Below, piece after piece: positions 2,673 to 62,905 of a stretch of 64,000 bases of DNA (position 1 is its first letter; each line of letters starts with the position of its first letter). This DNA comes from Candidatus Falkowbacteria bacterium (GTDB lineage: Bacteria; Patescibacteriota; Patescibacteriia; Patescibacteriales; UBA12075). The position numbers were made by a program, and so were the translations under genes. The notes under the pieces were generated by a model that made no database searches, was not told the origin of the DNA, and saw nothing but the letters and a program-made list of their open reading frames with translations. The stretch is from the NCBI GenBank assembly GCA_003514005.1, contig DOSJ01000004.1:101533-165532 (forward strand), written 5' to 3'.

Positions 2673-4020
2673 AATAAAAATCTAATATGTCGGCGACAAT
2701 AAAAGAATCTTTTAAAATATCGGAGCGTTTGCAAACTATGTTTCCATGAGCATATTTATCTAAAATAACACCTAAATTACGTTGGTCTGAAAGCCATTCA
2801 TTGGTAAGCGATACGCCATTTTTGTCCTGTTGAGTTAATTGCTTTTTCGCTTCTTTGAGAAAATCCTCACAAACTTGATCTTGTTTAGCTTTTTTGCCAT
2901 CGCCTCGATTCTCGTAATGGACACGAGCCGCAATTTCAACCAATAATCGAAGTGCCATTCCAAGAAAGGGCAATATAGCATCATTGTTTTGACTTTTTTT
3001 ATCAATATCCACCAGAGCACGGTATAAATCATTTACCTTACCTTGCTGTAAAGAAAGGGTTCGTCCAAAAAGCTCATCGGCTGTTTTAGTGACCGGTGTT
3101 TTGCGAGCGATTTTTAATTTATAATCAGTGGCTATTCCTACTTTTCCAAAAAGATCTGTTTGTTTCTTGCTTTCGGCCTCTGTTATTTCGGTCGATGCCC
3201 GATCGAAGTCTTTATCAGAAATACTTTTTAAATAATCAAGTATTTCTTTGTTATTCAAACGAGAAAATAATTTGCCATTATACTGGCCATTTTTTAACAC
3301 ATCCCAAACAACCACTTTTAACTTTTTTTCAAAATCAGTATCTTTAATTTTCAATTTTTTATTTCCGTCAAAAGAAAAACCAAAAAATTCTTGAGCCGGT
3401 GTTTGCCCGATCAATCTCCAGAAAGTTGTCACATAGCCGGGCCCCAGTACTGATTCTTTTAATTCATTTGCTATTGTAAGACTGTTAATAACCTTTGTTA
3501 TTCCAACCCTTATCAACTCTTTCTCTCCGGCTTTTCCTCGACGTTCCTTGTGATGAGCTATTTCATTAGAGCCCCACGATACCTCATTGTTTTGATTAAG
3601 ATGTTTTCTTTCAATAAAGCGATAGCCTTCTTCCAAGTCCTCGGTTACGAGGCACTCTAATTCAAAATCCCCTGAAAGATTGATTTTTGATTTGATTTTT
3701 GAAAATTTTGTTTCTTGAGTGCCAGCCAGTTTGGGGTCTGCTAACAATTTATATGCGGCGACTCTTCTGTTACCTTCAAGAACAATATTGCGATCATTAA
3801 AACGCCAGACAACGATTTTCTCCAACTGAGGAAGATCAGCATCCTTTTCCATTTCGCTGGCCAATTTTAAAACCTGAAATTTACCAGTTATAAAGTGTTT
3901 TAATAAATCTTCCTCCGTAAGACCAAAATACTGATCAGAAAAACGAGCATTCTCGTCCCAGAGTGAGAGATCTTTAATCGCTATGTCTTTTTTGTTCCAT
4001 TTTGAATTGTGAGTGCTCAT
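2656..4020 (-). CDS. ParB/Srx-fold (ParB N-terminal-like, DndB/DGQHR-related) domain protein, 454 aa
   Basis: The N-terminus has IKDLSLWDENARF (equivalent of the ParB I..L...NPR box) and IVLEGNRRVAAYKLL (GxRR / DGQHR-like box). The remaining ~330 aa have no motif I recognise. Confidence 0.7.
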   Translation of the reverse strand: MSTHNSKWNKKDIAIKDLSLWDENARFSDQYFGLTEEDLLKHFITGKFQVLKLASEMEKDADLPQLEKIVVWRFNDRNIVLEGNRRVAAYKLLADPKLAGTQETKFSKIKSKINLSGDFELECLVTEDLEEGYRFIERKHLNQNNEVSWGSNEIAHHKERRGKAGEKELIRVGITKVINSLTIANELKESVLGPGYVTTFWRLIGQTPAQEFFGFSFDGNKKLKIKDTDFEKKLKVVVWDVLKNGQYNGKLFSRLNNKEILDYLKSISDKDFDRASTEITEAESKKQTDLFGKVGIATDYKLKIARKTPVTKTADELFGRTLSLQQGKVNDLYRALVDIDKKSQNNDAILPFLGMALRLLVEIAARVHYENRGDGKKAKQDQVCEDFLKEAKKQLTQQDKNGVSLTNEWLSDQRNLGVILDKYAHGNIVCKRSDILKDSFIVADILDFYFGKKN

Positions 4021-9931: not shown

Positions 9932-10267
9932 TTAAATCAAATTTTTTACAATAAGAAATCCAAATAACCCGATAAAGATAAAGCCAAGCGAGAGCAGAAT
10001 TGCTGTTATTGGATTGTGATGTATTTCTTTCCATGAGATCAATGCCGTGGGGCCGGTATAAACATTCGGTGGTTTAATAGTTGAAAATTTTTGTTCAGCA
10101 ATCCAATAAGATATGCCAATTAGTAGCATTCCTATTCCAAGACCACATAGATGTTTGTTTTGGATAAAATCAATCTTCACAGTGAAAGACATAAAAATAG
10201 CACCTACGCCAAGTAATAGGATTATTTTCCACCAAGTATCTATTTTTAAGCTTTCAAGAAATTTCAT
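9932..10267 (-). CDS. small integral membrane protein (111 aa, ~4 TM) inserted between hsdM and hsdS
   Basis: Track ORF with four hydrophobic segments. It lies 2-3 nt from hsdM and hsdS on the same strand. Confidence 0.55.
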   Translation of the reverse strand: MKFLESLKIDTWWKIILLLGVGAIFMSFTVKIDFIQNKHLCGLGIGMLLIGISYWIAEQKFSTIKPPNVYTGPTALISWKEIHHNPITAILLSLGFIFIGLFGFLIVKNLI

Positions 10268-21842: not shown

Positions 21843-22582
21843 GTTACCCAAATAAATTCAAAAAGCGCCTTATGCATTGAATAGATATTTTCGTCTTCGA
21901 TCAAAGTACCGGTTAGATTTTTTTCTGTCATTGTGATATAGGCGATTTTGTTATCGTAAATATGAAGACTGGTTGAGAATGGGGTAATTTGCAAATTTAT
22001 CAGTTTTACATCGGTTAATTCGCTTGCGCTCGAAAAATGATTACGGGCGTAAGGCGAATCAAGGGCGAGAAGCCTTTTTTTAATACCTTTTTTGTTTCTT
22101 TTTGCCACGTATTCCTTGTTTATCTCTCTTAGATATTTATCAACCGCCTCAACATCGGCAATAGTTAGGATTTCAGTCTTTGCTGTAAGTGTGTCATTAA
22201 GAATTTTCCAAATCCCTTCCTCTCCCTCATAATACCTTACCCCCGGCTTGTTACTAAGCAAATTATAGGATGAAACCATATCTGGCAGGTAATTGTTAAA
22301 CAATTCCCTGTCTTTTTTTATTTGTCTTTCTTTTTGGTCAAAAAACTTTTCCATCTGCGCCGGGTGCCCGATGCGGAAATAGCTGATGGCGTTCGGCTTT
22401 TCTACCCGCTCAACAATATTTAAAACCACCATTTCCTCCAGATCTTTATAAACGATTGCTCTGGATTTTTTGATTTGCTTGGCAATTTCCGAGGCCTTGT
22501 CTTCTTTTTTATTGAATAAGTATTCCATTATGGCGGATTGAGTAGGGGTGAGGCCGGCTTTTTGGAAGATTTGTTTGTACAT
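21839..22582 (-). CDS. TrmB-family (winged HTH) transcriptional regulator
   Basis: The N-terminus GLTPTQSAIMEYLFNKKEDKASEIAKQIKKSRAIVYKDLEEMVVLNIVERV is a typical TrmB wHTH. 247 aa. Confidence 0.75.
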   Translation of the reverse strand: MYKQIFQKAGLTPTQSAIMEYLFNKKEDKASEIAKQIKKSRAIVYKDLEEMVVLNIVERVEKPNAISYFRIGHPAQMEKFFDQKERQIKKDRELFNNYLPDMVSSYNLLSNKPGVRYYEGEEGIWKILNDTLTAKTEILTIADVEAVDKYLREINKEYVAKRNKKGIKKRLLALDSPYARNHFSSASELTDVKLINLQITPFSTSLHIYDNKIAYITMTEKNLTGTLIEDENIYSMHKALFEFIWVT

Positions 22583-22590
22583 CTGGTTTT

Positions 22591-22675
22591 AAAAATTCTA
22601 AATTATAAGGTCTAATTTCTAATATTTTAAATCATTAATAGATTAGAAATTATAATTTAGATACTTAGAAATTAT
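22591..22675. repeat. hairpin repeat, family ttctaaattataa/gtctaatttctaa (copy 1 of 4, degenerate)
   Basis: Inverted arms aaattctaaattataaggtctaatttctaat / attagaaattataatttagatacttagaaatt. The same words occur at 27463, 48685 and 50478. Confidence 0.7.
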
Positions 22676-22737
22676 TTTTACAATCATTATCTAGAATAAT
22701 TATAGCATATCTATAAAAAATGTCAATATAAAAATTA

Positions 22738-27453: not shown

Positions 27454-27462
27454 TAATGCAAA

Positions 27463-27531
27463 AAATTTCTAAATTATAATGTCTAATTTCTAAATTCTAT
27501 TTTAGAAATTAGACATTATAATTTAGAAATT
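27463..27531. repeat. hairpin repeat, ttctaaattataatgtctaatttctaa family (copy 2; ~31-bp perfect stem)
   Basis: aaatttctaaattataatgtctaatttctaaa / tttagaaattagacattataatttagaaatt. Confidence 0.85.
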
Positions 27532-27617
27532 ATTTTATTAAAATATGGCTTGGCCATGAGATAAATAGTGCTGTGAGTAAGCTCATAGTCCTGTAATTTC
27601 ATTGCCAAGCAGAACTA

Positions 27618-30001: not shown

Positions 30002-30035
30002 AAAAAAACACCGGAAATTTTCCGGTGTTTTTTTG
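30002..30035. terminator. bidirectional intrinsic terminator between pnp and pgi/pmi
   Basis: aaaaaaacaccggaaa-tt-ttccggtgttttttt, with A-run and T-run on either side. Confidence 0.8.
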
Positions 30036-31054: not shown

Positions 31055-31306
31055 AAGGATGAGTTTATTTTTAAAATATTAAATAGTTCGTTAACATATT
31101 CTGTGAGCATTTCACGTCTGTGCCGGCCGAAAATATGTCGGAGAACCAATAAAGATATTGTATCATTTTTTTGAAAAAATAGAAATAATTTCAATATTTT
31201 CTCTTGATTTTTTATATGACTTATGGTAATTTTATAAAAGATAAGTAAAGACGACAAAATCAGAATATGCTGGATGTCGTCTATTTTATATATTAAGAAT
31301 AAACCT

Positions 31307-32020
31307 ATGTCAGGACATTCAAAATGGGCGACAATTAAACGAAAAAAGGAGGTTACGGACTCTAAACGCGGAGCCGTATTTACAAAATTGGGAAATATTA
31401 TCAGTATCGCGGCCAGGGAAAAAGGCGGCGATATTGAGACGAATTTTTCTTTGCGCATGGCAGTTGAAAAAGCCAAAGCCGCGAATATGCCAAAAGAAAA
31501 TATCGAGCGCGCGATCAAGCGCGGTACGGGCGAAGGTGGCGGAGAGCAGATTGTTGAATTGATTTATGAAGGAATCGGACCGGCTAATTCGCAGTTTATT
31601 GTAAAAGTTTTGACTGATAATAAAAACCGCAGCGCCGCGTCCGTGCGCCATGCTTTTACAAAATATGGCGGATCGCTTGGGACTGTGATGTGGAATTTTG
31701 AGCAGAAAGGAGTGATTCGAGTGTCGAGTGTCGAATTTCGAATTTCGAATGACGAAGATGAGCTAGAGTTGATTGAAGCAGGCGCTGACGATATTTTAAA
31801 AGAAGAGGAGGGAGTAACTATTTATACAAAGCCGGAGAATTTGCAGAAGGTTAAGAAGTTTTTGGATGAGAAAAAAATTAATACAGAATCTGCAGAAATT
31901 GAGTATATTGCGAAAGACGAGGTTGAGATTAGCGGGGAAGATAAAGAAAAGATTGAAAAATTTATTGATGAGTTGGATGGCATTGAAGACGTTTCGGATT
32001 ATTATAATAATGTATTGTGA
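31307..32020 (+). CDS. yebC: YebC/PmpR family DNA-binding transcriptional regulator
   Basis: MSGHSKWATIKRKKEVTDSKRGAVFTKL is the canonical N-terminus. The track start 31274 adds 11 non-homologous codons. Confidence 0.9.
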   Translation: MSGHSKWATIKRKKEVTDSKRGAVFTKLGNIISIAAREKGGDIETNFSLRMAVEKAKAANMPKENIERAIKRGTGEGGGEQIVELIYEGIGPANSQFIVKVLTDNKNRSAASVRHAFTKYGGSLGTVMWNFEQKGVIRVSSVEFRISNDEDELELIEAGADDILKEEEGVTIYTKPENLQKVKKFLDEKKINTESAEIEYIAKDEVEISGEDKEKIEKFIDELDGIEDVSDYYNNVL

Positions 32021-40248: not shown

Positions 40249-40422
40249 ATTAGGGAATAGGGATGGGAAATTAGGTACTTAGGTACTTAGGGCATAGGAG
40301 TTGGAAATTTAAGATTTATATAAAAAAATAAACTCAATTATATTTGAGTTTATTTTTTTAGATAAAATGATGATACCATACCCCCTATGCCCTAAGTACC
40401 TAAGTACCTAATTCCCTTATTA
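40249..40422. repeat. aggtacttagg-family long inverted repeat clamping a bidirectional terminator; right arm overlaps the trmD stop
   Basis: Left arm ttagggaatagggatgggaaattaggtacttaggtacttagggcatagg and right arm ccccctatgccctaagtacctaagtacctaattcccttatt. They enclose aaaaaaataaactcaa-ttatat-ttgagtttattttttt (40322-40360). Confidence 0.85.
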
Positions 40423-41111
40423 CTCCGTCTCCATTTCTCAATCTCCGCATGATTGCCAGATAACAAAACCTCCGGCACCTTATGTTCATGGCTATTGCTA
40501 TCAATAAAAACCTCCGGTCTTGTGTACTGAGGATATTCGAGCTCGCCCGGAATAGAATGCGATTCGTCTTGCGCGCTTTGTTCGTTGCCGAGTACGCCGG
40601 GCAATAGTCGCGTGATTGAATCAACCAATGCCATTGCGCCGATTTCACCGCCGGTCAAAACATAATCGCCGATTGAGATTTCTTCGTCAATGAATTCCGT
40701 TATTCTTTCATCTACGCCCTCATAGCGGCCGCAGACTAGAGTGATGTTTTCTAAGTTCGCGTATTCCTTTGCTTTTTGTTGATTCCATTTTTGGCCTTTG
40801 GCAGATAATAAAATAATTTTTGTATTAGGTATTAAGTATTTAGTATTGTGCAATTCAGGCTGTATATTATTGCTTAATACTTGATACTTAATACTTGATA
40901 CTGTTTTGTATAAAATATCGACTTTCATAACCATTCCAGCGCCGCCGCCGTATGGTGTGTCATCGACCGTTTTATGTTTGTCCGTTGTATAGTCACGCAG
41001 ATTGATAATATTTATTTTTATATTCCCTTGTTCTTGCGCGCGCTTAAGAATGCTCTCGTTGAAATAAGAGTTGAAAATTTCGGGGAAGATTGTGATTATG
41101 TTAAAAGTCAT
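40392..41111 (-). CDS. trmD: tRNA (guanine37-N1)-methyltransferase
   Basis: TIFPEIF, DDTPYGGGAGMVM, VCGRYEGVDERI, IGDYVLTGGE and LLSGNHAEIEKWR. Start taken at MTFNIITIFPE. The track start 41126 lies inside the MITE terminal repeat. Confidence 0.92.
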   Translation of the reverse strand: MTFNIITIFPEIFNSYFNESILKRAQEQGNIKINIINLRDYTTDKHKTVDDTPYGGGAGMVMKVDILYKTVSSIKYQVLSNNIQPELHNTKYLIPNTKIILLSAKGQKWNQQKAKEYANLENITLVCGRYEGVDERITEFIDEEISIGDYVLTGGEIGAMALVDSITRLLPGVLGNEQSAQDESHSIPGELEYPQYTRPEVFIDSNSHEHKVPEVLLSGNHAEIEKWRRSNKGIRYLGT

Positions 41112-41120
41112 ATATGCATC

Positions 41121-41255
41121 TGTCATTCCCGCGAAGGCGGGAATCTTGGTTTAAAAATAATAAAATATTTTAATTTTTTGAAGGTTGTAAAATCATTTCA
41201 AGAAAATAAATTCGGTGATTTGTTTACCGAGATTCCCGCTTTCGCGGGAATGACA
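41121..41255. mobile_element. MITE-like element, copy 1 (135 bp) with 26-bp hairpin-containing terminal inverted repeats
   Basis: tgtcattcccgcgaaggcgggaatct ... agattcccgctttcgcgggaatgaca. No ORF. Lies between khpA and trmD. Confidence 0.65.
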
Positions 41256-41355
41256 AAAGTGTTTATTCGTAGATTAGCATTTTTATTTTTATTTGACTAT
41301 CAAAAAGCCACGAACAAAATGTTGTGGCTTTTTGAATATCTGATTTTGTTTTAGA

Positions 41356-41688: not shown

Positions 41689-41828
41689 AGTTTTTTGCTT
41701 TGGGATTTATGGCTTAATAGCCATAGACCTAAAGCGTACTTAATAATTAATTCATCCTGTTCGTTTTGCTATGCAGGAATATTATGTGTATATTATAACA
41801 CAAATATAATATTTGTCAATAGCCTGTT

Positions 41829-45298: not shown

Positions 45299-45477
45299 TA
45301 ATTAGTTAATTAGGGGCGATATAAAAACCGTTTTATCTGTATAAAACGGTTTTTTATTGAAAAAAATGTATTTGCCAAGCTTAAAAACGTGTTGTATACT
45401 GTATTAAGTACATTATTTAATAATTAGGTATTATAGATAATTCTTTGGGTAAATTTTTAAACGTTTTTTCCTTCACT

Positions 45478-45645
45478 TGTCATTCCCGCGAAGGCGGGAA
45501 TCTTGGTTTATTAATAACAAAATATTTTTATTGCAGGTTTGTTATGAAACTATTTTATCATATTTTTCTTTTGTTATTATAACACCGAGATTCCCGATCA
45601 TTTAGTATTAATTCCCTGCGGGGCCATGGAGTGTCGGGAATGACA
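45478..45645. mobile_element. MITE-like element, copy 2 (168 bp), right terminal repeat interrupted
   Basis: The left 33 nt are identical to copy 1 (tgtcattcccgcgaaggcgggaatcttggttta). The right end is agattcccg[39-nt insertion]cgggaatgaca. Lies upstream of ftsH. Confidence 0.65.
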
Positions 45646-47523: not shown

Positions 47524-47628
47524 ATTAGGGTATAGGTACTTAGGTAATTAGGTTTTTTAAAACGTCTTGATAATACATCAAGACGTTTTTTGTTTTACAC
47601 CCCTTATTCCCTAAGTACCTATTTTCCT
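47524..47628. repeat. aggtacttagg-family inverted repeat clamping a terminator hairpin
   Basis: attagggtataggtacttaggtaattagg / caccccttattccctaagtacctattttcc, around aaaacgtcttga-taataca-tcaagacgtttttt (47558-47592). Confidence 0.75.
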
Positions 47629-48684: not shown

Positions 48685-48763
48685 AATGTCTAATTTCTAA
48701 ATTATAATTACTAAAAAAGCATTAATAAAAAATTTAGTTATTATAATTTAGAAATTAGAAATT
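48685..48763. repeat. hairpin repeat, ttctaaattataa family (copy 3), upstream of the pilB-like gene
   Basis: aatgtctaatttctaaattataattactaaa / tttagttattataatttagaaattagaaattt. Confidence 0.8.
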
Positions 48764-48772
48764 TAGAGATTT

Positions 48773-50476
48773 ATGTCCGATATCCAATCAATTGAAGATT
48801 TGATCGCTTCCTCAAAGGGAGGCGGTTTTGATGATGAGAGCGCTTTGGGAAAATTTCAGGCAAAGCAAAAAGAGATCAATGTGAAAGAAGTAGAAAGATT
48901 AACTGAACAGAACGCGGTAAATTTGGGCGTGTCTTATATAAGTCTTTTTGGTTTTCCGATTAGTCCAGAGGCCCTGTCTCTGATCACCGAGCAAGACGCG
49001 CGCCAGTTTAATGTTGTTTGTTTTTTTTATGACGGCCAAAAAATCCGTTTAGGCGCGCTTGAACCGCATAGCGAGGCAGTAGTAAACAAACTCGAAGAGC
49101 TTTGCGCAACCTTTTTCTGCGAAGGCGAAACTTATTTGATATCCAAAAATAGTTTGGAATACGCGATAAGGCTGTATAACTCGATTCCAAAGGTTAGAGT
49201 AATTCCGCGCGGCGTAGAATTAACAGAAGATGATTTGAATAAATTCAGTGAAAAATTTTCCAGTTTTGCGGATTTGCAAAAAGAGATCAATCAGGCAAAA
49301 GTAACCGATATCGTAACCATGGTTATGGCGGCATCTATCAAGCTGGACGCTTCCGATATTCATATCGAAGCAGAAGAAGACGGCATAAAAGTGCGTTTTC
49401 GCGTTGACGGCGTTTTGCATGACGCTTCGGTAATCAGTAAAGATTTATGGAAAAAGATAATTTCACGCCTTAAAGTTATCGCCAAAGTAAAGATAAATAT
49501 TGCCGATAAGCCGCAAGACGGGCGCATGTCTATTATTACCGCGCATGATCGGATTGATATTCGCGTTTCTTTTTTGCCGACCAATTTCGGCGAAAGTGTG
49601 GTTATGCGTATTTTGAAAGCCAGCTCAGTCGGCTTGGCTTTTAATGATCTGGGCATCCGTGATCGCGCGTTTGAACAACTAAGGCGCGAAGTCGAGCGTC
49701 CGAACGGCATGATTATCACAACCGGTCCGACCGGTTCAGGGAAAACCACTACCTTGTATGCGATTTTAAAGAAATTAAATAATCAAGAAACAAAAATAAT
49801 CACGATCGAGGATCCGATTGAGTATCAGCTGGAAGGCGTTAATCAATCGCAGATTAGCGAGAAATACACTTTTGCTCAAGGTCTGCGCTCTATCGTGCGC
49901 CAGGATCCGGATATTATTATGGTTGGCGAAATTCGCGATTTGGAAACCGCCGAGATTGCAATCCAGGCTTCTTTGACCGGGCACCTGGTATTGTCCACTA
50001 TCCATACAAACGATGCCGCTGGCACTGTGCCGCGTTTCATATCCATGGGAACAAAGCCTTTTCTTTTGGCACCGGCTTTGAACGCGATGATCGGTCAGCG
50101 TCTGGTCCGCCGTATTTGTGAAAAATGCAAAGTTGTCGACGAATTGGATGAAGAAAAAAGAAAAAGAGCTTTGGATTATATCAAGGAAATTCCCGCGGCT
50201 GAGCGGGGCGAATTGGATTTTGACAAAATCGTATTTTATAAAGGCGCCGGCTGCGAGGCTTGCCAAGGCATAGGCTACAAGGGTCGGATCGGCATATATG
50301 AGATTGTTGTGGTTGACGAAGATATGGAAAAACTGATCTTGTCCGGAGCAGTTAATGAGTATGATATGCGCGCCGCGGCTGCGAAAAAAGGCACGCTTTC
50401 AATGGCACAAGACGGAATGCTCAAAGTTTTGGACGGAATAACTTCGGTTGAGGAAGTGTTTAGAGTTGCGGAGTAA
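48773..50476 (+). CDS. type II/IV secretion / type IV pilus assembly ATPase (GspE/PilB family)
   Basis: GPTGSGKTTT, IMVGEIRD, GHLVLSTIHTNDA, and the tetracysteine CEKC...CEAC. Confidence 0.92.
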   Translation: MSDIQSIEDLIASSKGGGFDDESALGKFQAKQKEINVKEVERLTEQNAVNLGVSYISLFGFPISPEALSLITEQDARQFNVVCFFYDGQKIRLGALEPHSEAVVNKLEELCATFFCEGETYLISKNSLEYAIRLYNSIPKVRVIPRGVELTEDDLNKFSEKFSSFADLQKEINQAKVTDIVTMVMAASIKLDASDIHIEAEEDGIKVRFRVDGVLHDASVISKDLWKKIISRLKVIAKVKINIADKPQDGRMSIITAHDRIDIRVSFLPTNFGESVVMRILKASSVGLAFNDLGIRDRAFEQLRREVERPNGMIITTGPTGSGKTTTLYAILKKLNNQETKIITIEDPIEYQLEGVNQSQISEKYTFAQGLRSIVRQDPDIIMVGEIRDLETAEIAIQASLTGHLVLSTIHTNDAAGTVPRFISMGTKPFLLAPALNAMIGQRLVRRICEKCKVVDELDEEKRKRALDYIKEIPAAERGELDFDKIVFYKGAGCEACQGIGYKGRIGIYEIVVVDEDMEKLILSGAVNEYDMRAAAAKKGTLSMAQDGMLKVLDGITSVEEVFRVAE

Positions 50477-50477
50477 A

Positions 50478-50549
50478 AAATTTCTAAATTATAATGTCTA
50501 ATTCCTAAACAATAAAATTTAGAAATTAAACATTATAATTTAGAAATTT
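50478..50549. repeat. hairpin repeat, ttctaaattataa family (copy 4), downstream of the pilB-like gene
   Basis: aaatttctaaattataatgtctaattcctaaa / atttagaaattaaacattataatttagaaattt. Confidence 0.85.
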
Positions 50550-50614
50550 TATATTTTAGGTATAAATATTAAGTATCACATGTATTATAAAAATATTGCA
50601 TGTAACGCAAAACT

Positions 50615-51184: not shown

Positions 51185-51273
51185 ATTAGGGCGTAGGTAC
51201 TTAGGGAATAGGGGGATTTAAATTCTAATGCGATTATTAATAATCCTAAGTACCTAAGTACCCAAGTACCTAA
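51184..51273. repeat. aggtacttagg-family inverted repeat
   Basis: gattagggcgtaggtacttagggaataggggga / aatcctaagtacctaagtacccaagtacctaa. Confidence 0.75.
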
Positions 51274-60232: not shown

Positions 60233-62905
60233 ATGACAAAAGAAATGCCAAAGGCTTATGAGCCGGGCTTGTATGAGGATGATATTTATAAACAGTGGGA
60301 AGAATCCGGAGTTTTTCAGCCGGAAAATTTGGAAAATACTAGTGGGACGTATTGCAATGTTTTGCCGCCGCCGAATGCGAATGGTGAATTGCATTTGGGG
60401 CATGTTTCCGGATATGTGGCTATGGATTTGATGGGGCGCTATCAACGGATGCTTGGTAAAAAAACCTTGCTTTTGCCGGGCAAAGACCATGCCGGAATCC
60501 AGACCCAGGTCGTTTATGAAAAGAAAATAAAAAAAGAAAGAAATATTTCACGTCACAACCTGGGGCGCGAAAAGTTTTATAATGAAATTTATGATTTTTG
60601 CATTGATCGCTCGGCCTATATGCGAACGCAGGAAAAAAAGATTGGCTTGTCCGCGGATTGGAGTCGAGAGAAATTTACCATGGATCCCAAAATCGTTAAT
60701 AATGTCCTCGACACTTTTGTAAAAATGTATAACGAGGTTGATGAAGACGGGAACAGGATGATCTATCGCGGTGAACGGATTATCAATTGGTGTCCAAGAT
60801 GCGCGAGTGCTTTGGCAGATGTTGAGGTTGAACATGAAGAACAAAAAGCAAAATTATTCTATTTTAAATATGATAAAAATTTTCCAATAACAATAGCAAC
60901 TACTCGTCCGGAAACAAAACTGGGCGATACTGCGATTGCGGTTAATCCAAAAGATGAAAGATACAAGGAATATATTGGCAAGACATTTCAAGCGAATTTT
61001 TGCGGGATTGATTTGAATATCAAGATTATCACAGACCATAATATTGATTTGTCTTTTGGCGCTGGTGCACTTGGTGTTACTCCCGGGCATTCTGCAATTG
61101 ATTGGCAGATGGCACAGGTGAATGACCTAGAAATAATCAAAGTAATTGGCGAAGATGCAAATATCAGGCCTGGTTTTGGCGAATATTCTGGCAAGAGCGT
61201 TCTCGAGGCGCGTGAAATGATCGTTGCAAAACTAAAAGAACAAGGTTTGATTGAAAAAGAAGAAGAGTTTGATAATAATCTTTCAGTCTGTGAACGTTGT
61301 AAAACCGCTATTGAACCATTGGTTTCAGAGCAATGGTTTGTGAATGTTGACCACAAGAATTTTTCCTTGAAAAAAGAAGCGCGGAAAGTTATTGAAAACG
61401 GAGAAATAAAAATTTATCCAGAAAGATATAAAGACATTATGCTTTCTTGGATTGACAATGTTCATGACTGGTGCATTTCGCGCCAGATTTGGTGGGGACC
61501 AAGGATACCGGCGTGGTATCGGGAAATTTTCGATTTACGATTGCCGAATGCCGATTTGGATGATAATAAATCGAAAATCGAAAATCGGAAATCGGAAATT
61601 TATGTCGGTATCGAAAAACCAGACGGCGAAGGATGGATGCAGGATTCTGATACATTTGATACTTGGTTTTCATCCGGGCAGTGGGCTTATAATACGCTTG
61701 GGTTTCCGGAGGGAAATGATTATAAAGAGTTTTATCCGAGCGACACCATGATAATGGGACGGGATATTTTGCCGTTTTGGGCGTTTCGGATGATTATTTT
61801 GAGCATATATCGTACAAAGCAGATTCCGTTTAAAAATTTGTATTTTACCGGGTTGATTCGCGATGGACAAGGAAAGAAGATGTCAAAGTCAAAAGGGAAT
61901 GGCATTGAACCGCTTGAGATGATCGAAAAATTTGGAACCGATGCTGTGCGATTATCTATGATGATCGGGGCGACACCGGGGAATGATATGAATCTGAGCG
62001 AGGAAAAGATCGCGGGGTTTCGGAATTTGGTGAATAAGCTTTGGAATGTGGCGAGATTTGCGATTTCCGATTTGCGATTTCCGATTGTTGAATTAAATCA
62101 AGATATGCTTACTGTTTCTGATAGATATATTTTAGAAAAAATGAAATTTTTAATTAGAGAGGTAAGTGGTGATTTAGAAGAATATCGATTTTCTCAGGCA
62201 GGTGAGAAACTTCGCGAATTTACATGGAATGATTTGGCGGATTGGTATATTGAGGCTAGTAAGTTTGCTGTAAGCGATGGGAAAGACTTTGTTTTGATAA
62301 AGATTTTAACTGATTTATTAAAACTATGGCATCCGTTTATTCCTTTTGTTACCGAAGCGATTTGGCAAGAACTTGATTCTGATAAAAAATTAATTGTGTC
62401 GCGTTGGCCGCTTGCTTTGGATTATGAAGTTTATAAAACAAAGCAAGAAGATATTGATAATTTTGAGATAATAAAAAATATTATAATTGCGATTCGCAAT
62501 GCGCGTTCGGAAAATAAGGTGGAGCCGGCAAGGAAGGTTAAAGCGCTTATTGTTGCTGGTGAATATTTTGATTTGATAAATGATAATGAAGCTTTGCTAA
62601 AGGGGATGAGGACAGGGGTAGAGAAGTTAGAAGTTGTAAGTAAGAAGTTAGAAGAAAAAGATGAAAATGAAACTATTAAAATAGTTGTGGGAGAAATAAT
62701 AATATATTTATTTGGAGCGATAGACAAAGAAAAAGAAGCGGAGCGGATTAAAAAAGAAAAGGCGAATTTGGAAAAACAGATTGAAGTTTTGCGTGTAAAG
62801 CTTGGTAATAAAGATTTTGTGGAACGAGCGCCAGAGGCTATTGTAAAAACTGAACAAGAAAGACTTTTAAAAATGGAGAGTGAGTTGGTGAAATTGGGAG
62901 AATAA
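60233..62905 (+). CDS. valS: valine--tRNA ligase
   Basis: PPPNANGELHLGH (HIGH), KMSKSKGN (KMSKS), CISRQIWWGPRIPAWY, and a C-terminal coiled-coil. Confidence 0.97.
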   Translation: MTKEMPKAYEPGLYEDDIYKQWEESGVFQPENLENTSGTYCNVLPPPNANGELHLGHVSGYVAMDLMGRYQRMLGKKTLLLPGKDHAGIQTQVVYEKKIKKERNISRHNLGREKFYNEIYDFCIDRSAYMRTQEKKIGLSADWSREKFTMDPKIVNNVLDTFVKMYNEVDEDGNRMIYRGERIINWCPRCASALADVEVEHEEQKAKLFYFKYDKNFPITIATTRPETKLGDTAIAVNPKDERYKEYIGKTFQANFCGIDLNIKIITDHNIDLSFGAGALGVTPGHSAIDWQMAQVNDLEIIKVIGEDANIRPGFGEYSGKSVLEAREMIVAKLKEQGLIEKEEEFDNNLSVCERCKTAIEPLVSEQWFVNVDHKNFSLKKEARKVIENGEIKIYPERYKDIMLSWIDNVHDWCISRQIWWGPRIPAWYREIFDLRLPNADLDDNKSKIENRKSEIYVGIEKPDGEGWMQDSDTFDTWFSSGQWAYNTLGFPEGNDYKEFYPSDTMIMGRDILPFWAFRMIILSIYRTKQIPFKNLYFTGLIRDGQGKKMSKSKGNGIEPLEMIEKFGTDAVRLSMMIGATPGNDMNLSEEKIAGFRNLVNKLWNVARFAISDLRFPIVELNQDMLTVSDRYILEKMKFLIREVSGDLEEYRFSQAGEKLREFTWNDLADWYIEASKFAVSDGKDFVLIKILTDLLKLWHPFIPFVTEAIWQELDSDKKLIVSRWPLALDYEVYKTKQEDIDNFEIIKNIIIAIRNARSENKVEPARKVKALIVAGEYFDLINDNEALLKGMRTGVEKLEVVSKKLEEKDENETIKIVVGEIIIYLFGAIDKEKEAERIKKEKANLEKQIEVLRVKLGNKDFVERAPEAIVKTEQERLLKMESELVKLGE

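Follow-up and report, generated by a model that had tools for sequence, protein, structure and literature searches.

A hairpin of heptanucleotide words translated within trmD of a Candidatus Falkowbacteria bacterium: a possible cis-acting structure

What is a long palindrome doing inside the coding sequence of a housekeeping gene, and what could have kept it there? The question is raised by trmD in a 64,000-nt stretch of contig DOSJ01000004.1 of a Candidatus Falkowbacteria bacterium (Patescibacteriota), which was analysed as a whole and is called the window here. The gene is an open reading frame (ORF) of 244 aa at 40392..41126 on the minus strand, called by NCBI as 239 aa from a start at 41111 (MTFNI...). 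Its product matches the Pfam family PF01746 (tRNA_m1G_MT, E 2.8e-51) and solved TrmD structures (E about 1e-61), and is 100% identical to a Candidatus Falkowbacteria TrmD (P0001). A first-pass annotation, made from the letters of the window alone, had reported a palindrome in frame in trmD, and the palindrome does lie within this ORF. We find that it is an inverted pair of heptanucleotide arrays (a 'word hairpin') that is in frame and translated in the hypervariable alpha3-beta4 linker of TrmD, to which it adds about 15-17 residues.

The inverted repeat has arms of 33 nt each (40822-40854 and 40869-40901) that are 82% complementary and enclose a 14-nt loop, 80 bp overall. In the sense of the mRNA, on the minus strand, the 5' arm (GTATCAAGTATTAAGTATCAAGTATTAAGCAAT, 40869..40901) encodes V76-N86 in 7-nt words of the form GTATYAA, reading GTATCAA GTATTAA GTATCAA GTATTAA, with an exact 14-nt tandem duplication within the arm. 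The loop (40855..40868) encodes about N87-E91, and the 3' arm (ATTGCACAATACTAAATACTTAATACCTAATAC, 40822..40854) encodes (E91)L92-T102 in the words TTAATAC, TAAATAC and CTAATAC, reading ..AATAC TAAATAC TTAATAC CTAATAC. The hairpin as a whole encodes V76-T102 (..VSSIKYQVLSNNIQPELHNTKYLIPNT..), of which residues 77-102 are SSIKYQVLSNNIQPELHNTKYLIPNT. Both arms are reported by Tandem Repeats Finder (TRF) as period-7 tandem arrays (GTATTAA x3.7 at 40822-40847 and CTTAATA x4.3 at 40873-40902), and both are heptameric repeats of at least three 7-nt units. The two strings in which the symmetry had first been noticed are present in the window and are 22/26 complementary as reported, the second of them starting at 40876 and not at 40875; the full inverted repeat extends further than was noticed then.

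On the minus (mRNA) strand the hairpin folds at -22.2 kcal/mol (z -6.8) and on the plus strand at -33.7 kcal/mol (z -7.0), and none of 200 dinucleotide shuffles was as stable on either strand. The symmetry is thus highly significant against shuffled sequence, a point on which the first-pass annotation had made its proposal depend. Terminator and promoter scans gave no match on the hairpin, the terminator scan making no call of an intrinsic terminator there, and Rfam had no match to 40822-40901 at E<=1. On the sense strand the stem continues into AAAAAUUAUUUU, with no U-tract. A search for other AAGTATT-word hairpins, which had been proposed along with the palindrome, yielded none in the 64-kb window, and no copies were found in the flanks of relatives, including 20 kb of the relative L168. 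Two readings as a mobile element were rejected: an 8-nt ATACAAAA on both sides, considered as a target-site duplication, overlaps the arm and is missing in relatives, and a miniature inverted-repeat transposable element (MITE) does not fit a hairpin that is single-copy in the window and has no consistent flanking direct repeat in the window, L001 or L002.

The hairpin is an in-frame insertion in a conserved gene that is missing from most orthologues. In the HMMER alignment to solved TrmDs, gaps of 13+4 = 17 residues fall exactly at the hairpin, and the linker, taken between the GGG.GM motif and the strand that follows, spans 39 aa here, where most TrmDs of other phyla have 22-25 aa; the lengthening by about 15 aa that had been suggested for this linker is therefore real. 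The comparison draws on ~150 TrmD loci, mostly of distant phyla, among the matches listed in genome and metagenome contigs, and in this background the linkers of other phyla are no more stably folded than shuffled sequence (z about 0). An AlphaFold2 model of moderate quality (mean predicted local distance difference test, pLDDT, 67.6), built from an alignment of 41 sequences, has TrmDs as its closest structural matches. In the model the left-arm peptide prolongs helix 69-86, residues 87-101 form a low-confidence coil (pLDDT about 52-65 in the insert loop), and strand 102-108 (KIILLSA) follows. The insert would sit at the N-terminal end of a strand whose C-terminal end (SAKG) begins the knot that binds S-adenosylmethionine (AdoMet), and so away from the side that carries the active site, given a fold topology that we take from established TrmD structures.

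How can such a palindrome be accommodated in a coding frame? The frame through the hairpin is open, and the insert lengths of relatives differ by multiples of three. At two of the six arm mismatches, an unaltered word would have created an in-frame stop: in phase 3, GTATTAA would give TAT TAA, and GTATCAA is present instead, while TTAATAC would give T TAA TAC, and TAAATAC is present instead. An excised intron is ruled out by the open frame, by this avoidance of stop-creating word variants, and by the length differences, all of them multiples of three. In addition, each of the four A.C mismatches reflects a T replaced by C on the sense strand; one of these replacements is what averts a TAA, and a second is its copy in the 14-nt duplication. 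The better fold of the antisense strand, with four G.U pairs as against none, can be attributed to this combination of stop avoidance and duplication on the coding strand; an antisense function is not required, and we rejected the G.U asymmetry as a sign of an antisense RNA. Applied to the hairpins at gene ends in the window, the G.U method gives a weak strand signal. The pairing register sets third codon positions against third, and first against second, in 8 of 9 lineages, which are not independent of one another.

The DNA of 11 relatives was examined at this site (percentages below refer to TrmD identity outside the insert, and z values are given as sense / antisense). The same hairpin is found in L001 (91%; z -6.4 / -8.2), L002 (80%; z -7.4 / -9.4) and L168 (71%; z -5.9 / -7.7), and with variant words in L163 (75%; z -5.4 / -4.6). 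Hairpins made of other words occupy the site in L170 (GTATGCA; 72%; z -5.5 / -5.7), L164 (GAATCAW; 69%; z -2.7 / -6.1), L165 (GAATCAW; 68%; z -7.8 / -8.5) and L171 (GGAATCA; z -6.9 / -5.2), and the remaining three (L169, L166 and L167) hold direct heptamer arrays with no hairpin (z about 0 to -1). The carriers of the window's words are Falkowbacteria/Patescibacteria from independent assemblies at 70-90% TrmD identity, and the hairpin is vertically stable within the clade, with the same arms almost base for base at about 70-80% TrmD identity. The first-pass annotation had tied the long linker to the palindrome, and the nearest relatives whose linker is as long (L001, L002 and L168) do have the palindrome as well.

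Over a wider set of 120 Patescibacteria TrmDs, the linker holds assorted peptides, each a heptamer array translated through its three frames, such as KSQITNH = (AAATCAC)3, HATRNTQ = (CACGCAA)3, SIKYQVS = (AGTATCA)3 and the FQFPISN type, and other linker peptides come from small GC hairpins (LPTGQAG, GAIHELPL, PLTKGARG). The distribution of the hairpin on a rough neighbour-joining tree of the 120 TrmDs is patchy, the tree being too weak to decide between a single origin and several.

If the pairing of the arms matters, it should leave a trace in how the arms evolve. The arms are invariant among the window, L001 and L002, except for a two-base change in one left-arm word of L002, while the loop differs between them at nearly every position and varies in length among relatives as well. 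We compared, among positions encoding the same amino acid, the fraction of identical codons in the 19 arm codons with that in the rest of the gene (one-sided Fisher test). Between the window and L168, 17/19 arm codons are identical as compared with 66/148 (45%) elsewhere (p=1.6e-4); for L001 and L168 the counts are 18/19 and 71/149 (48%; p=4.6e-5), and for the window and L002 15/18 and 90/164 (55%; p=0.016). The same is seen in a hairpin of another type, made of GAATCAW words, between L164 and L165 (15/18 in the arms, 74/152 or 49% in the rest; p=0.0045). In this small sample, synonymous divergence is thus suppressed in the paired segments and the loop is unconstrained, as expected of a structured cis element. 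The arm peptides are conserved too, being identical at 19/19 positions between the window and L168 in a protein that is otherwise 71% identical.

Paired changes were counted in six sequences that share one register, the register being set by the protein alignment and not by the structure. Changes on both sides were found in 6/30 pairs, as compared with 1.6 +/- 1.1 in shuffles, of which 0/500 reached that number, and controls in which the partners were slid by 1-3 columns gave 0-1. Examples in L170 and L163 include A-U to C-G, U-A to A-U and C-G to G-C. Compensatory change of the kind expected of a structured cis element is thus seen, on just six sequences. A column-wise analysis over all hairpin types was dropped because the registers differ (offset -5 for type A, +7 for type B and 0 for L171). 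Silent-site conservation and paired changes together point to selection on the pairing at the nucleic-acid level, and we infer that the arms are under purifying selection as paired sequence, the encoded peptide probably being a tolerated passenger in a surface linker.

Does the hairpin stand alone in this genome? TRF found 16 period-7 arrays in the window as compared with 0.3 expected from Markov shuffles, along with 3 arrays of period 14, 5 of period 8 and about one each of the remaining periods. The window also holds 17 strong hairpins (0-1 in shuffles), nearly all of which start a few bases past a stop codon, and these gene-end hairpins are made of 7-8-nt words as well: TTTCTAA/ATTATAA, AAAGTTA, AGAAGTA, GATTTTA and AGGTACTT. 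The trmD palindrome had been described as having the same design as the intergenic hairpins, and these counts agree with that description. Since it shares both the word design and the period-7 excess with the gene-end hairpins, it belongs to a genome-wide repeat class.

Two such members flank trmD in the window. Between the convergent glgA and trmD lies a gene-end hairpin of AGGTACTT words (40266-40298 / 40384-40416, 97% complementary), which encloses a canonical terminator-like hairpin (40315-40366) and whose right arm supplies the last trmD codons and stop (KGIRYLGT*); it is missing in L001, whose TrmD ends differently. A copy related to it was seen at 47532-47622, and CCTAAGTA x3.6 at 51245-51273. 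On the other side, the khpA-trmD spacer holds an inverted pair of GC-rich gtcattcccgcgaaggcgggaatc mini-hairpins (41110..41266) that overlaps the first ATG of the trmD ORF and is also missing in L001. This pair has sub-threshold Rfam matches to the Wolbachia small RNA WsnRNA46 (43.5 bits, E 3e-7) and to Francisella FtrB. A second inverted pair of gtcattcccgcgaaggcgggaatc mini-hairpins occurs at 45495-45596, and spurious ORFs across such pairs read VIPAKAGI / IPAFAGMT. Around its trmD, L001 retains just small canonical terminator-like hairpins; one of these, at 41300-41335 in the window (CAAAAAGCCAC...GTGGCTTTTTG, between khpA and trmD), is base-for-base identical in the two. As the word hairpins flanking trmD are missing in L001, the intergenic members of the class turn over fast, whereas the trmD member is stable.

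What, then, could selection on the pairing be acting upon? The best explanation overall, to which we assign a probability of about 0.4, is that the trmD hairpin is a cis-acting structure, probably of the trmD mRNA, with a role that can be suggested from its context. It would act in cis as a structured part of the trmD transcript, where the long imperfect stem could be a processing or decay site (RNase III-type) or a pause site for the ribosome or RNA polymerase. In this way it might tune the amount of full-length TrmD, a role comparable to the one presumed for the gene-end hairpins at the 3' ends of mRNAs. It may have originated by expansion and inversion of a heptamer array at a permissive loop. 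A role at the level of the transcript is favoured because the sibling hairpins lie at the 3' ends of mRNAs and because, classically, the E. coli trmD operon yields far less TrmD than it does of the partner proteins.

Several observations weigh against a structure acting in the mRNA. A.C and A.A mismatches make for a weaker stem on the sense strand (-22 kcal/mol), and the antisense strand folds better in 8/9 lineages. There is no U-tract, no terminator-like call and no Rfam family at the trmD stem. A conserved terminator-like hairpin is already present between khpA and trmD, so that the trmD hairpin is unneeded for uncoupling the gene from those upstream. The tests of constraint and covariation are based on 6-9 DNA sequences that are phylogenetically non-independent, and the double changes could come from hairpin-templated repair with no selection involved. 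Finally, P0007 and P0009, at 75-80% identity, are without the hairpin at this site, having no insert or a different array. With many relatives lacking the hairpin, any function is lineage-specific and dispensable.

Does the hairpin need a function in the cell at all? It is possible, if somewhat doubtful in our view, that it is a neutral or selfish protein-coding palindrome similar to the elements of Rickettsia: a heptamer hairpin of the gene-end type would have arisen in, or been inserted into, a permissive loop and kept its frame by chance and through counter-selection of stops. Such a palindrome would persist because precise excision is rare, and its arms would be kept alike by template switching within the hairpin and by concerted evolution of the words. 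The exact 14-nt duplication of the left arm, as a trace of slippage, fits this well, and so does the linker at large, which hosts heptamer arrays of many words, mostly non-palindromic (KSQITNH, HATRNTQ, FQFPISN...), as well as small GC hairpins, and which in close relatives such as P0007 is without any insert. In-frame heptamer arrays or hairpins are present in valS and yebC of the window, the intergenic siblings turn over fast, and the Rickettsia palindromic elements provide a precedent (PMC10969869). However, concerted evolution would not slow substitution between species, and the arm synonymous sites are about 5-fold more conserved than those elsewhere in the gene in two hairpin types; the arms are conserved and the loop is not; and no copy of the word hairpin that could have served as donor was found in the 64 kb of the window or in 20 kb of L168.

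The strength of the plus-strand fold brings in a different type of explanation, in which the hairpin acts on the other strand, as an antisense-RNA hairpin that halts transcription from the convergent glgA, or as DNA, as a hairpin or cruciform bound by a replication, recombination or repetitive extragenic palindromic (REP)-type protein, similar to the REP-associated tyrosine transposases (RAYTs). We regard this as clearly unlikely. The difference between the strands (-33.7 vs -22.2 kcal/mol, 4 G.U pairs vs 0, with the same trend in 8/9 lineages) is accounted for by coding. The plus-strand stem is followed by TGTTTTGT, but the T-rich tail there is the complement of conserved LYK codons. And although trmD has a convergent neighbour in most loci, glgA has terminator hairpins of its own 400 nt upstream, and L163 has the hairpin despite co-directional neighbours. 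No RAYT or IS200-like gene was seen, no search having been aimed at one. Selection could also have acted on the insert as protein, its 15-17 residues forming a new surface of TrmD, for example towards a partner or a tRNA feature, with the palindromy left over from its origin. The 19/19 identity of the arm peptides between the window and L168, in proteins otherwise 71% identical, and the helix 69-86 that is prolonged through the left-arm peptide in the AlphaFold model would be in line with this. Yet the silent third-position conservation and the paired double changes would then be unexplained, the peptides of relatives are wholly different (5/19 identity in L164 and L165), made of direct repeats or missing together with the insert, and the modelled loop is of low confidence (pLDDT about 52-65), so that we hold selection on the protein to be highly improbable.

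How does the trmD hairpin relate to known elements? The nearest parallel is provided by the Rickettsia palindromic elements, translated palindromes in housekeeping genes that form dispersed multi-copy families of about 100-150 bp (Ogata et al. 2000 Science, 2002 Genome Res, as summarised in PMC10969869). As in Rickettsia, a palindromic DNA is translated in frame in a conserved housekeeping gene, at a site that the fold can accommodate, and the reduced genome has repeats of the same kind between genes too. Unlike the Rickettsia elements, the trmD hairpin is only 80 bp long, consists of tandem 7-nt words that change between lineages, is single-copy in 64 kb where the Rickettsia families are multi-copy with a conserved peptide, and shows synonymous-site constraint and covariation. 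The REPs and bacterial interspersed mosaic elements (BIMEs) of enterobacteria and pseudomonads are imperfect palindromes that lie where genes end, in many cases as inverted pairs on either side of a terminator, with roles in mRNA 3'-end protection and protein binding; REPs are by definition extragenic, follow one consensus throughout a genome and are associated with RAYT transposases. The intergenic word hairpins of the window fit this description well, whereas neither an extragenic position, nor a shared consensus, nor a link to RAYTs is shown for the trmD hairpin. With intrinsic terminators it shares the form of a stem-loop in a transcript and siblings just past stop codons, but its stem is 33 bp long and AT-rich, with a 14-nt loop and no U-tract on the sense strand.

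Heptamers are over-represented among the simple sequence repeats of bacteria, and GGGNATC heptamer arrays lie near stop codons in Xanthomonas and Nostoc (PMC4692102). The arrays of the window resemble these in their 7-nt unit, repeated about four times, in their genome-wide excess, in lying within about 50 bp of stop codons and in being rare in ORFs. The GGGNATC arrays, however, are G-rich and have been suggested to fold into quadruplexes, and no inverted pairs of them are described, whereas those of the window are AT-rich and form long hairpins, the one in trmD being in frame. Heptamers in the short tandemly repeated repetitive (STRR) sequences of cyanobacteria were reportedly described by Mazel et al. 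in 1990. A literature search found no paper on such hairpins or heptamer arrays in bacteria of the Candidate Phyla Radiation (CPR).

Until now, palindromes in frame in housekeeping genes have been viewed as peculiar to Rickettsia. A version of different structure in CPR bacteria would show that repeats have recurrently colonised protein loops in reduced genomes; new in this version are the heptamer words, the single copy, and arms conserved at silent sites with compensatory changes. If the reading as a cis-acting structure is true, trmD would be a concrete, testable example of selection acting on nucleic-acid structure within an essential gene. A bolder proposal, which we think rather unlikely, is that the heptamer-word hairpins of these Patescibacteria form a cis-element class of their own, made by some mechanism that writes 7-nt words symmetrically, and mark gene ends; a copy captured in trmD, and perhaps in valS, would have become a conserved regulatory structure, kept by selection on pairing and translated wobble-to-wobble. 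Many odd low-complexity peptides of CPR bacteria (KSQITNH, HATRNTQ, SIKYQVL...) are three-frame translations of 7-nt arrays, for which annotation and alignment should allow.

Further observations were made in sequences from outside the window. A second variable site lies past the RPEVF motif (columns about 320-345 of alignment A1) in P0057, P0063, P0090 and P0113, where the inserts (PLQKGGRG, PLTRGAR.., PLIKGARGIYYPPLTREDKGG) look like translated GC-rich repeat hairpins. In L168 a hairpin of CGTTATG words (9954-10026, 90% complementary) overlaps the annotated trmD start, so that MRYALCVMR, called as the N-terminus, is the translation of a repeat arm, and L169 has a perfect hairpin with 39-nt arms across the trmD stop. 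When viral contigs were scanned for the arm word, it turned up in unrelated IMG/VR contigs as long, pure (AAGTATT)n microsatellites (L183 at 3836-3950 and about 20 others, including giant-virus bins), always on one strand and with no hairpins. In Verrucomicrobiota, the TrmD linkers of L035 (2680-2794) and L037 (2674-2803) have 7-aa-periodic peptides (TPNAQHS TPNVQQS; TSNAQRP TSN..), with period-7 arrays in the locus, and the linker seems to attract in-frame heptamer arrays in general.

Within the window, one family of gene-end hairpins with TTTCTAAATTATAATGTCTAATTTCTAAA arms, up to 97% complementary, is present in four copies (22572-22686, 27460-27535, 48685-48763 and 50474-50553), each of which begins a few bases past a stop codon; unlike the trmD hairpin, this family is truly multi-copy. 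Separate canonical terminators are found at 30002-30034 and 45323-45354 in addition to 40315-40366, and a perfect sigma-70 consensus (TTGACA, 16 nt, TG, TATAAT) lies between rpsP and khpA at 41792-41819 on the minus strand. The valS gene (60233..62905 on the plus strand) contains an in-frame heptamer-word hairpin at 61526-61599, made of ATTTTCG/AAATCGA words, with the peptide IFDLRLPNADLDDNKSKIENRKSEI and a sense fold of -24.6 kcal/mol, and two more in-frame period-7 arrays (GATTTSC at 62055-62086 and AGAAGTT at 62622-62654). Another in-frame period-7 array, TTCGAAT x5, is located at 31716-31756 in the yebC/TACO1 family gene (31274..32020 on the plus strand).

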